From IMG/VR virus record IMGVR_UViG_2617270946_000020, positions 1 to 7,410 of that record: a DNA stretch of 7,410 bases. One strand, given 5' to 3'. The position numbers were made by a program, and so were the translations under genes. Every line of letters begins with the position of its first letter. The stretch's first letter is position 1. Of the stretch, positions 618 to 2,012 are shown piece after piece. The notes beneath the pieces are model-generated. The model was not told the DNA's origin, searched no databases, and was given only the letters and a program-made list of their open reading frames with translations. The stretch is from a virus (lineage: Duplodnaviria; Heunggongvirae; Uroviricota; Caudoviricetes).

Positions 618-2012
618 CTATGATATGCGCTGAAATAATCCTGCCTGTCTGATACCCGGAGATGATGTCCATAGCATCGGACCACATGCACGCCACGTGC
701 CCGGTAAACGGGTCTCCCCCACATTACCGGAAGCAACCAGGGGAGTACCATTCGAAAGGCAACATGCAGACAGTGATGAGCCGGCAATGGCTGAGCCCGG
801 TGCCATATCCCCCGAATAACTCGTCGCATAATATGCCGCAAGGACAAAAGAACCGACACCAAACAGTCCGCTGTCAGGACTTCCTGACGGTCCCTGAGGT
901 CCTGCCGGACCTGTGTCTCCCGTATCTCCCTTCGGTCCCTGTGGTCCTGCCGGGCCTGTGTCTCCCGTATCTCCCTTCGGTCCCTGTGGCCCTGCCGGGC
1001 CTGCAGCTCCCGCATCCCCTTTAGGTCCCTGTGGTCCTGCCGGGCCTGTGTCTCCCGTATCTCCCTTCGGTCCCTGCGGACCTGCCGGGCCTGTGTCTCC
1101 CGTATCTCCTTTTGGCCCCTGAGGCCCTGCCTGACCTGCGGCTCCCGTATCCCCTTTTGGCCCCTGTGGTCCTGCCGGGCCTGTGTCTCCCGTATCTCCC
1201 TTCGGCCCCTGTGGTCCTGCCGGGCCTGTGTCTCCCGTATCTCCCTTCGGTCCCTGCGGACCTGCCGGGCCTGTGTCTCCCGTATCTCCTTTTGGCCCCT
1301 GAGGCCCTGCCTGACCTGCGGCTCCCGTATCCCCTTTTGGCCCCTGTGGTCCTGCCGGGCCTGTGTCTCCCGTATCTCCCTTCGGCCCCTGTGGTCCTGC
1401 CGGGCCTGTGTCTCCCGTATCCCCTTTCGGCCCCGGCGGTCCGCCCGGGTCACCTTTATCGCCCTTCGGTCCCTGTGGACCTGTTTCTCCCCGTTCTCCC
1501 TTTGGCCCCGGCTCACCTTTTGGTCCGACCGCCCCCGTTGCCCCGGCTGGTCCCTGTGCCCCTGTGGCACCCTGTGGACCTGTGTCCCCCTTCTCGCCCG
1601 CCGGTCCCCGGGCATTCTCTGCCCGTTCCTTCGCTTCCTCTGCACTCGCCGCCGACGCTTCAGCACGCTTCAGGATTTCCGCTGCCACCGCTTCCAGCTC
1701 TGCAAGCGCTTTCGGGTAATACTGCACCTCATCCTGTTCCATCAGAAATTTATTCAGCGTTCCCGGCTCAGAATCCGCCTTCACCAGAATGTCACCCACA
1801 TACGACGGGGCGTACCCTTCCGTGTTCAGCGTCACCCGGTACCACCCCGGCTCCACATCAAAACTGTAACTGCCGGTTTCCCCCGGCTGCCCCTGCGCCA
1901 CCGTGGTGACTATCACCGTCTCACTCGTTCGCGTGGCTTTCAGCTCTATGGTGCAGTCCGGTACCGGTTTTCCTGTACCATCCTTCAGCACACCTGAAAT
2001 CTTTACTGCCAT
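618..2012 (-). CDS. stf: Side tail fibre protein with collagen-like Gly-X-Y repeat domain (lambda Stf N-terminal homology)
   Basis: N-terminus [17 protein letters not shown] matches my recollection of the lambda Stf N-terminus. It is followed by an Ala/Glu-rich coiled-coil-like segment, then roughly 200 residues of uninterrupted G-X-Y triplets ([18 protein letters not shown] and variants), then a short C-terminal domain ending ...LFQRIS. Start chosen at ATG 2012-2010, preceded by GGGGTGA; the ORF track begins two codons upstream at a GTG (2018). Confidence 0.85.
901..1440. repeat. Tandem 45-bp repeat array (about 12 units) encoding the collagen-like domain; includes two identical 180-bp higher-order copies
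   Basis: Direct reading: units beginning cctgccgggcctgtgtctcccgtatctccc... recur every 45 bp from about 901 to 1440. The sequence lines at 1021-1200 and 1201-1380 are identical except for the first 10-mer, so the block about 1036-1215 is duplicated exactly at about 1216-1395. Confidence 0.9.

Follow-up and report, generated by a model that had tools for sequence, protein, structure and literature searches.

The 7,410-nucleotide stretch of phage DNA analysed here (the window) carries, on its minus strand, a gene of the side-tail-fibre (stf) type that holds an array of twelve in-frame 45-bp units. We find that this array is best explained as encoding the triple-helical collagen shaft of a side tail fibre of lambdoid type, altered by recombination between units, and we put the probability of this reading at about 85%. 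The features on which the argument rests are the following, with the evidence for each in brackets.

1-672, minus strand: DUF4376 gene, putative tail-fibre chaperone (Pfam PF14301, E 9e-17; PHROG 1141, E 8.7e-80)
618-2012, minus strand: side-tail-fibre (stf-type) gene, 464 aa (ORF list, Pfam, PHROG, RefSeq)
621-869, minus strand: C-terminal non-collagen domain, 83 aa (similarity to EC55989_1078, column conservation)
894-1433, minus strand: array of twelve in-frame 45-bp units of 15 codons or 15 aa (Tandem Repeats Finder, unit dissection, pairwise unit distances)
1027-1421, minus strand: perfectly periodic tract of 395 bp with a 180-bp period (shift-180 identity run, unit strings)
1434-1436, minus strand: one-residue break of the Gly-X-Y register, Pro193 (translation)
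1437-1607, minus strand: first collagen stretch, 19 non-repetitive Gly-X-Y triplets, aa 136-192 (regular expression on the translation, Pfam)
1740-2012, minus strand: N-terminal collar domain, aa 1-91, homologous to lambda Stf residues 1-91 (phmmer against PDB)
2029-2050, minus strand: terminator-like G+C-rich hairpin followed by a T-run, between lom and stf (pattern scan)
2077-2613, minus strand: I::lom fusion ORF (Pfam Lambda_tail_I and Ail_Lom in one ORF)

Domain architecture of the fibre protein

The stf-type gene runs from an ATG at 2012-2010 to a TAG at 620-618. An in-frame GTG at 2018, upstream of this ATG, is unlikely to be the start, and the RefSeq start is identical in the 8-, 6- and 10-unit alleles described below. 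At its N-terminus the protein matches the whole of the PfN profile PF08400 (positions 1-134 of 134, E 4.7e-42, 143.6 bits against a cut-off of 26.6). A phmmer search of PDB sequences aligned its residues 1-91 with residues 1-91 of chain Ta of 9e7m, the 'Tail fiber protein' of Ur-lambda (E 1.6e-31), and PHROG 366, 'tail fiber protein', matches it with an E of 1.3e-112. The PfN model reaches aa 134 (1611-2012) and thus takes in a predicted neck at aa ~97-135, which may be helical.

Collagen begins at aa 136, directly after PfN. Pfam matched PF01391 (E 6.8e-38), with its best Collagen stretch at 137-192 in 466-aa numbering, and also PF13620. The 19 triplets of the first stretch end at Pro193, a register break that lies within GDPGGPPG (aa 187-194); a second, itself uninterrupted stretch of 62 triplets (876-1433), of which the array is part, follows and brings the Gly-X-Y total to 81. 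Neither the Pf2 repeat (PF03406) nor, at E <= 0.01, PfC (PF06820) was found by Pfam in the protein. Its C-terminal domain ends ...LPGTWRACG...GLFQRIS, and the G, W and GLFQR columns are kept among divergent relatives. Of these 83 residues, 78 are shared with the C-terminal end of EC55989_1078 from E. coli 55989. The C-terminal 90 aa matched no family in Pfam, PHROGs or NCBIfam, and a fold search with the C-terminal domain returned no match; from its position alone, we presume that the domain is the trimerisation and receptor-binding head.

Since NCBIfam also returned adhesin_SclA (223.7 bits), adhesin_Lcl (208.1 bits) and SclB (152.6 bits), we considered a bacterial surface adhesin of the Scl1/Scl2/Lcl kind rather than a phage structural protein; Lcl, too, varies in its number of collagen repeats, with effects on function (PMC6460258). 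We regard this as very improbable. The scores fall far below the respective cut-offs of 400, 500 and 325 bits and concern the Gly-X-Y part only, the protein begins with the lambda Stf collar domain, and the sequence, which ends in GLFQRIS, has neither a signal peptide nor an LPXTG motif. Moreover, both lambdoid prophages and an isolated phage carry the gene within their tail modules. The designation as a collagen-like tail fibre, originally made by a sequence-only reading of the window, is thus borne out by PF08400, PF01391, the 9e7m collar match and the location of the gene after J and lom in intact relatives.

The repeat array and its alleles

Tandem Repeats Finder, the check that the same reading had proposed, called both periods: 45 bp (12.5 copies, 888-1449, 87% matches, score 788) and 180 bp (3.1 copies, 888-1439, 92% matches, score 901). 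Self-identity over 880-1640 was 0.76 at a shift of 45, far above the 0.43 seen at shifts of 18 and 27, which rules out a compositional accident. The earlier estimate of about twelve units at 901-1440 proved exact in number, those coordinates being the same 540 bp as 894-1433 in another phase. Direct string comparison of 1036-1215 with 1216-1395, the two adjacent blocks said to be identical, gave 0/180 mismatches, and the identity extends further than had been claimed: 1027-1241 equals 1207-1421, so the exact repeat copies are 215 bp long and the periodic tract spans 1027-1421. With the units labelled A to H, the window reads A-BCDE-BCDE-F-E-G, in which the first in-frame BCDE block occupies 1209-1388 and the second 1029-1208.

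The same peptide is encoded by nine of the twelve units, which differ among themselves by synonymous changes only. Units diverge by 5.3 nt per 45 nt within the window allele versus 7.0 nt against divergent alleles, and 0-21 of 2,000 label shuffles matched the observed unit similarity, a statistic that is partly raised by the recent duplication; the units of this allele may have been homogenised. The coding strand of the array is minus. ORFs on the plus strand (1031-1909) and in another minus-strand frame (599-1666) were rejected as genes for want of family support: plus-strand and alternative-frame ORFs across the array gave no above-threshold family match, their sole match being one sub-threshold Collagen match arising from the G/C-rich complement.

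The four closest alleles have 12, 8, 6 and 10 units (ABCDEBCDEFEG, ABCDEFEG, ABCHEG and ABCDEBCHEG, respectively), and those with 6, 8 and 10 sit in complete E. coli genomes. Between relatives L001 (8 units) and L006 (12 units) there are 0 differences in 1,940 bp of flanks, and adding 180 bp to the 8-unit array, with the join inside a 35-nt tract common to units A and E, gives the 12-unit array. A crossover model rebuilds the array exactly, with the crossover placed anywhere in this tract, GATACGGGAGACACAGGCCCGGCAGGACCACAGGG. The diagnostic E-to-B junction also occurs on a different haplotype, in the complete genome AP045180 (10 units). In L002 and L003, the left flanks (893 bp) are identical, with the same 16 differences from the window, and the arrays differ by 180 bp. 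Because the 8- and 12-unit alleles have identical flanks and the E-to-B junction recurs on another haplotype, we conclude from sequence comparison that the 180-bp duplication is real, recent and recurrent (two haplotypes), by way of the 35-nt identity tract. The sequence-only reading had anticipated as much in proposing a very recent duplication or continuing homogenisation by unequal recombination.

In complete genomes the array has 4, 5, 6, 7, 8, 10 or 11 units (twelve alleles, counting the 12-unit one), and wider relatives have 1-12. Protein relatives have 7, 12, 17, 27, 32, 37, 42 and 47 triplets, that is, steps of five triplets. The expected variation in copy number between strains is thus seen, at 4-12 units and in the protein series. 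Since the window, 8-, 6- and 10-unit proteins had no exact entry in a table of 15 billion clustered proteins, length variation was taken from neighbouring clusters and from DNA. Across about a dozen alleles every indel is in frame and in unit phase, with clean junctions, and alleles differ by such indels and not by scattered substitutions. Restriction to even unit counts, as whole 30-residue supercoil turns would require, was rejected: the four closest alleles are even, but relatives have 5, 7 and 11 units. One allele is misnamed carboxypeptidase in RefSeq.

The array, with its head-to-tail units and a copy number that varies in unit steps, fits a variable-number tandem repeat, or coding minisatellite. 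Misaligned recombination or replication slippage between near-identical units would add or remove whole units in frame. In this scheme, the 8-unit allele would have become the 12-unit window allele by a crossover in the A/E 35-nt tract that doubled four units (180 bp, 60 aa, ~17 nm), and a separate 90-bp loss through a 13-nt tract common to D and F would have produced the 6- and 10-unit alleles.

The identical 180-bp blocks could instead have been mis-joined or mis-counted in assembly, with a true array of different length. The window is identical to a draft contig (GCA_000704605.1 JNRI01000051.1, 32.5 kb), the 215-bp exact repeat copies exceed typical short reads, and the 12-unit allele was found in 0 of 5,426 complete E. 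coli genomes, being confined to draft assemblies (the window and five further ones); among the same genomes no place covered >= 80% of the 7.4-kb arrangement. Many database proteins are also partial, starting or ending inside the array, in line with the assembly trouble that had been foreseen. Against an artefact, six separate NCBI assemblies give a nucleotide-identical 540-bp array; in two of them the flanks are 11 substitutions from the window, and one lies on a 987-kb contig. The E-to-B junction in AP045180, on its other haplotype, points the same way. Short-read assemblers collapse tandem repeats more than they invent copies, so the probable error is under-counting and not false duplication. 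We therefore consider an artefact improbable and retain the real duplication; the figure of 12 units is best read as a minimum, because an exact repeat of 215 bp cannot be reliably counted from short reads.

Gene neighbourhood and state of the prophage

In the window the stf-type gene comes after L, K and I::lom. The I::lom fusion is the scar of a 4.5-kb deletion that took the tail-tip gene J, with its junction at 2476-2480; in a BLAST alignment with L006, an intact relative, 4,522 bp are absent from the window and the two sides overlap by 5 nt at the junction. Intact relatives have the order J-lom-stf-DUF4376, adjoining potB; in those relatives whose fibre protein is identical to that of the window, the gene likewise comes after J and lom. 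The same order is found in the isolated phage PhiR5_1 (recorded host E. coli C), and PhiR5_1 and PhiR12, both isolated phages, encode homologues of the fibre. The hairpin at 2029-2050 has an 8-pair stem with 7 G-C pairs, followed by TTTTTGTGGG, and is a terminator by consensus match only. A scan of 1-2800 gave no sigma-70-like promoter, which is consistent with late-operon read-through transcription and proves nothing.

Downstream of the fibre gene, two ATGs are candidate starts of the DUF4376 gene, one at 672 (product of 223 aa) and one at 609 (202 aa), and gene callers disagree on the choice; the one at 609 is just past the stf stop and an AGGAGG motif. The protein is 42% identical to the product of the gene after stf in PhiR5_1, and nothing in PDB sequences matched it at E <= 1. 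DUF4376 proteins of Alteromonas phages V22 and A5 are tail-fibre chaperones (PMC10579305), and by analogy the protein encoded here may have this function.

The prophage has undergone four internal deletions, through which it lacks J, H, T, G, V, U, Z, part of M, the head genes and most of the terminase; M has lost most of its length in the host prophage. Decay is staged, with L005 and L006 intact, L004 intermediate and the window most deleted. Owing to the loss of J, H, V and most of M, the fibre gene here is an intact orphan with no cognate tail, in a prophage remnant that cannot build one. To act at all, the gene would need the tail of another phage or would have to be recombined into one.

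Relatives and proposed role of the fibre

Collagen domains of variable length were already tabulated by Ghosh et al. 2012 for the collagen-like proteins of E. coli prophages (EPclPs; PMC3368898), and the fibre, when compared with E. coli prophage proteins as the sequence-only reading had suggested, fits this group. It has the PfN domain PF08400, Gly-X-Y repeats matching PF01391, a lambdoid tail-module site, a GDPGGPPG register interruption and a non-PfC C-terminus like that of EC55989_1078, which is listed as EPclC*. EPclA and EPclB have a PfC domain and a PCoil region of about 109-116 aa; assignment to either was rejected, as PF06820 is absent and collagen follows PfN directly. In EPclC/EPclC*, PCoil is often lacking. 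The window protein resembles the EPclC/EPclC* proteins P-EibA ORF-401 and EC55989_1078 in its PfN N-terminus, GPK/GPQ/GPA-rich collagen, GXPGGPXG interruption, lambdoid prophage tail-module site and a collagen length that differs from copy to copy. It is a mosaic of modules from these two listed proteins, the P-EibA ORF-401 region being 94% identical to it over the N-terminal 141 aa. However, EC55989_1078 has 116 aa of PCoil, which the window protein lacks, and a typical EPclC has two collagen domains split by a Pf2 repeat, whereas here there is one long one (243 residues, 81 triplets). The anatomy of 45-bp units and a 180-bp block is found here and is not described in PMC3368898.

Lambda Stf is alike in its homologous collar, its position after J and lom and a small accessory gene downstream; a trimeric role would be shared. 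The two differ in that the lambda shaft is made of Pf2 repeats together with a distal domain that shares structural homology with T4 gp37 (PMC12617516), where the window protein has collagen, and in that lambda uses the Tfa (Caudo_TAP) chaperone, while the gene downstream here is DUF4376 and not of the Caudo_TAP/Tfa type. In Ur-lambda, twelve Stf copies make a collar at the gpV/gpM junction (PMC12617516); given the homology to Stf 1-91, the N-terminal domain of the window protein may dock in the same way.

We propose that three chains trimerise and that, as in Ur-lambda, their N-terminal domains would dock on the tail as a collar where tube and tip meet. A rod of ~70 nm (from a rise of 0.286 nm per residue) would be formed by the 81 Gly-X-Y triplets, and the C-terminal 83 aa, folded or capped with the help of DUF4376, would be the distal head touching the host surface. 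Triple-helix formation is likely by analogy with EPclA, for which circular dichroism, SEC-MALLS and electron microscopy, on recombinant protein only, revealed a dumbbell-shaped trimer with a collagen triple helix (PMC3368898). Receptor binding by the C-terminal domain, and any effect of fibre length, we infer.

BclA of Bacillus anthracis and Lcl of Legionella pneumophila likewise carry in-frame variable collagen units between an anchoring N-terminus and a globular C-terminus. In BclA the number of repeats determines how long the exosporium filaments are (Sylvestre 2003, cited in PMC10470788), and in Lcl it ranges over 11-18 units and is correlated with binding and with the formation of biofilm (PMC6460258). 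Both are cellular surface proteins with no homology outside Gly-X-Y, and so are analogues of mechanism, not relatives.

Alternatively, the gene could be a functionless passenger in a decaying prophage, its unit gains and losses being neutral by-products with no adaptive role for length. The four deletions that stripped tail, head and terminase genes and the staged decay from L005/L006 through L004 to the window fit this view, and in the EPclP literature consulted no phenotype or adsorption effect of Col length is shown. On the other hand, the ORF is intact and its product identical to that of prophages with an intact tail module; indels stay in frame and unit phase across a dozen alleles; the synonymous-only differences among nine units point to constraint on the peptide or to very recent decay; and function depends on length in the analogues BclA and Lcl. 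We hold the passenger account to be possible, if somewhat doubtful.

A stronger claim would make the array a contingency locus for virion reach, in which high-rate, reversible, in-frame changes match fibre length to O-antigen or capsule depth and remnant copies serve as an allele reservoir. If so, reach would change in steps of 180 bp (~17 nm) through the 35-nt hotspot together with 45/90-bp steps, and infecting lambdoid phages would pick up intact remnant copies by recombination. We consider this unlikely.

The protein family and its length variation are already published (PMC3368898); our data add allele detail and open no new question. Part of the query was matched in 4,336 of 5,426 complete E. 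coli genomes. For a gene family present in most E. coli genomes, the value is mainly technical, in that such arrays break or are mis-counted in short-read assemblies. The 6-, 8-, 10- and 12-unit series, for which crossover tracts could be mapped, illustrates neatly how unequal recombination acts on a coding minisatellite in nature. How fast lambdoid phages, Shiga-toxin phages among them, adsorb and which hosts they infect depends in part on their side-fibre genes, and a collagen shaft of variable length therefore offers one plausible way to a change of host range.

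The fibre gene and its neighbour

The repeat array lies within a stf-type open reading frame, the side-tail-fibre gene. Searches with its 464-aa protein returned a full-length match to the prophage tail fibre N-terminal domain (PF08400, E 4.7e-42), inside which a CarboxypepD_reg-like fold (PF13620) was also matched, together with collagen triple-helix repeats (PF01391, E 6.8e-38) in Pfam and the tail-fibre family phrog_366 (E 1.3e-112) in PHROGs. Residues 1–91 align to PDB 9e7m chain Ta (E 1.6e-31), which is the collar domain at the N-terminus of the Ur-lambda side tail fibre. 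The collagen-like tail fibre proposed by the sequence-only reading was thus recovered. Twelve such domains make up the Ur-lambda collar, which sits at the gpV/gpM ring junction and gives rise to four trimeric fibres (PMC12617516). The gene, its parts as read from the translation, and the next gene are as follows.

618–2012, minus strand: stf-type gene, 464 aa, array inside
between the N-terminal domain and the first Gly-X-Y triplets, minus strand: short alanine- and glutamate-rich segment
aa 136–192, minus strand: first collagen stretch, 19 non-repetitive Gly-X-Y triplets
between the two triplet stretches, minus strand: one-residue register break in GDPGGPPG
aa 194–379, minus strand: second collagen stretch, 62 triplets
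after the second stretch, minus strand: C-terminal domain, 83 aa
1–672, or 1–609 from an alternative start, minus strand: DUF4376 gene (PF14301, E 9e-17; phrog_1141, E 8.7e-80)

By homology and position, the product would be a trimeric side tail fibre made of an N-terminal collar domain, a short helical neck, a collagen triple-helix shaft and a small C-terminal head, with its chaperone encoded downstream. Pfam, PHROG, NCBIfam and fold searches assigned no family or fold to the C-terminal domain. The commonest triplets are GDT (21), GPK (15), GPQ (14) and GPA (12); proline occupies 52% of X positions and 19% of residues are charged. Other ORFs overlapping the array on either strand lack family support and were rejected as genes. 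RefSeq names the 10-unit fibre allele of AP045180 an 'M14 carboxypeptidase N/E family protein' (NZ_AP045180.1 6059–7363, WP_471722617.1), a name that probably arose in error from the CarboxypepD_reg-like fold (PF13620) of the N-terminal domain.

DUF4376 proteins of Alteromonas phages V22 and A5 are tail-fibre chaperones (PMC10579305). Gene calls disagree on where the window's DUF4376 gene starts: RefSeq begins it with an ATG at 672, giving a 55-nt overlap with the stf 3′ end, whereas other calls use an ATG at 609. Since the latter adjoins an AGGAGG motif and lies immediately 3′ of the stf stop (TAG), the arrangement suggests possible translational coupling from stf to DUF4376. A strong terminator-like hairpin (2029–2050, minus strand; 8-pair stem with 7 G-C pairs, then a T-run) separates lom from stf, which implies that stf expression would need antiterminated late transcription. 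One 90%-identity protein cluster (representative P0002) holds both 367–397-aa fibre proteins and 177–201-aa DUF4376 proteins; such similarity is unexpected, and gene calls that were fused or read through over the stf/DUF4376 boundary may account for the cluster.

Anatomy and origin of the 180-bp duplication

Tandem Repeats Finder recovered both a 45-bp period (12.5 copies, 888–1449, 87% matches) and a 180-bp period (3.1 copies, 888–1439, 92% matches), and self-identity over 880–1640 was 0.76 at shift 45 versus 0.43 at shifts 18 and 27. Twelve 15-aa units (894–1433) make up the first 60 of the 62 triplets of the second Gly-X-Y stretch, in agreement with the roughly twelve units first described. 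The two adjacent 180-bp blocks, 1036–1215 and 1216–1395, are identical at 180 of 180 bases, as had been read. The exact tract extends further: 1027–1241 equals 1207–1421, so that 1027–1421 is perfectly periodic. This true extent and the coding strand of the array, which is minus, are the only refinements to the original observation.

We then labelled the distinct 45-mers A–H and compared the window with the closest alleles from complete genomes, all adjoining potB and all with fewer units.

Unit strings of the window and the closest complete-genome alleles
Window: 12 units, A BCDE BCDE F E G
CP145714: 8 units, A BCDE F E G
AP027829: 6 units, A B C H E G
AP045180: 10 units, A BCDE B C H E G

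Unequal crossover between copies of the 8-unit array, anywhere in a 35-nt tract common to A and E, yields the exact 12-unit array. Over 1,940 bp of flanks, CP145714 and the 12-unit locus L006 show 0 differences; the 180-bp block is therefore their sole difference and the event very recent, in line with one of the two options of the sequence-only reading. AP027829 and AP045180 have identical left flanks (893 bp) that share 16 differences from the window, and in array length the two also differ by exactly 180 bp. Taken together, these pairs indicate the same gain or loss on two backgrounds, or its movement between them by recombination, and provide evidence that the 180-bp change is both recent and recurrent. 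Unit H is a D/F hybrid, formed by a 90-bp deletion via a 13-nt shared tract.

Six NCBI assemblies (L004–L009) encode exactly this 464-aa protein. All six have the 540-bp array without a single nucleotide difference, and two of them (L005 and L008) carry 11 flank substitutions relative to the window. Two observations speak strongly against a false duplication created by assembly: the E-to-B junction occurs in a complete genome, and the array is recovered in six assemblies. The 12-unit allele is found in draft assemblies only and each exact repeat copy spans 215 bp, so 12 is a draft-assembly count that could be an underestimate for the window strain. In two 2014 GenBank drafts the fibre gene is annotated over 1,414 nt (L004, 8001–9414; L007, 5449–6862), a length not divisible by three, although the product has 464 aa, and both loci are flagged because they do not translate to the query. 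An oddity in the annotation coordinates of a repeat-containing gene seems likely.

Copy number varies between strains, as predicted. Eight further alleles from complete genomes, at 85–89% DNA identity, have 4, 5, 7, 7, 8, 8, 10 and 11 units, and the second collagen stretch of same-architecture protein relatives has 7, 12, 17, 27, 32, 37, 42 or 47 triplets, a series in steps of five with a few off-step lengths (33, 39). The window's 62 triplets are the longest in this sample. Mean unit difference is 5.3 nt per 45 within the window allele versus 7.0 nt against units of divergent alleles, and label shuffles reached the observed excess in 0–21 of 2,000. The dominant unit is GDT-GDT in the window lineage and GDT-GAT or GDT-GAA in others. 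This pattern fits lineage-specific homogenisation, the alternative first raised beside duplication, although the recent duplication itself accounts for part of it. The anticipated assembly trouble is also seen: several database entries are partial proteins starting or ending inside the array, within 15-aa units, evidently fitting contig breaks at the repeat, where draft assemblies often break. Entries P0122, P0125, P0126, P0131, P0149 and P0151–P0153, which bear the names 'collagen-like protein, partial' or 'phage tail protein, partial', begin or end there.

As the collagen triple helix rises 0.286 nm per residue, the 243-residue shaft would be about 70 nm long, each unit adding about 4.3 nm and each 60-residue block about 17 nm.

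A deleted prophage around the fibre gene

The window is identical to contig JNRI01000051.1 of NCBI assembly GCA_000704605.1 (L007), and the prophage adjoins potB-potA-pepT-roxA-phoQ. Read against the lambda left end, about 5941–5980 is what we take to be the reverse complement of the cos/left-end motif (GGGCGGCGACCTCGCGGGTTTTCGCTATTTATGAAA), just upstream of the Nu1 remnant; its orientation therefore confirms a phage map on the minus strand. Genes were assigned by Pfam and relatives, and four internal deletions, with fused ORFs at the junctions, were placed by alignment to intact relatives.

about 5941–5980, minus strand: cos
5788–5318, minus strand: Nu1::A fusion
between the Nu1::A and B::FII fusions, minus strand: W
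5118–4096, minus strand: B::FII fusion
after B::FII, minus strand: C-terminal fragment of M
after the M fragment, minus strand: L and K
2613–2077, minus strand: I::lom fusion
after I::lom, minus strand: stf, then the DUF4376 gene
junction 5686–5687: A to Nu1, 1,973 bp gone
junction 4487–4492: FII to B, with FI, E, D and C gone
junction 4224–4237: M to FII, with 5′ M, H, T, G, V, U and Z gone
junction 2476–2480: I to lom, 4,522 bp gone, J included

This arrangement was found in none of 5,426 complete E. coli genomes. The prophage is unable to make a tail; among other losses, it is missing V and full-length M, whose products are the collar domain's partners in Ur-lambda (PMC12617516). The stf gene here is an orphan, its prophage much reduced by deletion.

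Across the assemblies that encode this identical fibre, decay is staged. The tail module (H, M, L, K, I, J, lom, stf, DUF4376) is intact in L005 and L006; in L004 the B::FII and I::lom deletions are present but Nu1 and A remain intact; the window, L007 and L009 share one arrangement, with the 1,973-bp Nu1::A deletion beyond the losses of L004. In L008 (GCA_012373615.2 AASIYF020000079.1, 1–9941), the identical 12-unit fibre gene, lom and DUF4376 are followed by a Caudo_TAP tail-fibre assembly gene, a resolvase/invertase, YnaE/YnaM and mannitol dehydrogenase; because its downstream genes differ, a rearrangement or exchange between prophages is suggested. Between the lysis region and cos lie three small genes, at 6183–6383 (plus), 6515–6856 (minus) and 7186–7410 (minus): a DUF3950/YlcI-YnfO family member, a lipoprotein-like one with a TonB C-terminal domain and a 74-aa ORF without a family match.

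Both the phage isolate PhiR5_1, for which E. coli C is the recorded host, and the PhiR12 isolates encode full-length fibre homologues; in PhiR5_1 the order is J, lom, fibre gene, then a DUF4376 homologue (42% identity).

Relation to known collagen-like fibres

The window protein is one of the E. coli prophage collagen-like proteins (EPclPs), a family with Col domains of 27 to 322 residues, length differences in multiples of three residues and a GXPGGPXG interruption (Ghosh et al. 2012, PMC3368898). Recombinant EPclA is a trimer with the circular-dichroism signature of collagen, a melting temperature of 42 °C and, by electron microscopy, the shape of a dumbbell with a stalk (PMC3368898). Triplet usage of the window fibre resembles the preferences reported for the family. 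Unlike EPclA and EPclB, the window protein has neither a PfC domain nor a PCoil region (Pfam); over its N-terminal 141 aa it shares 94% identity with P-EibA ORF-401, an EPclC protein, and its C-terminal domain matches EC55989_1078, an EPclC* protein, at 78 of 83 positions. On these grounds it is a mosaic member of the EPclC group. Lambda Stf has the collar domain in common, but shaft and chaperone type differ, and the adhesins Scl1, Scl2 and Lcl match only in the Gly-X-Y region, below curated NCBIfam cut-offs. Functional analogues are BclA, in which, according to Sylvestre 2003 as cited in PMC10470788, collagen repeat number sets filament length, and Lcl, in which it is tied to binding strength (PMC6460258). 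A candidate reading, which we regard as improbable, is that the array serves as a contingency locus to tune fibre reach.

The feature is real, and its first interpretation holds, predictions included. Both the protein family and its length polymorphism are already published; what is new here is the unit-level anatomy, the mapped crossover tracts, the evidence for a recent and recurrent 180-bp change and the orphan status of this copy.
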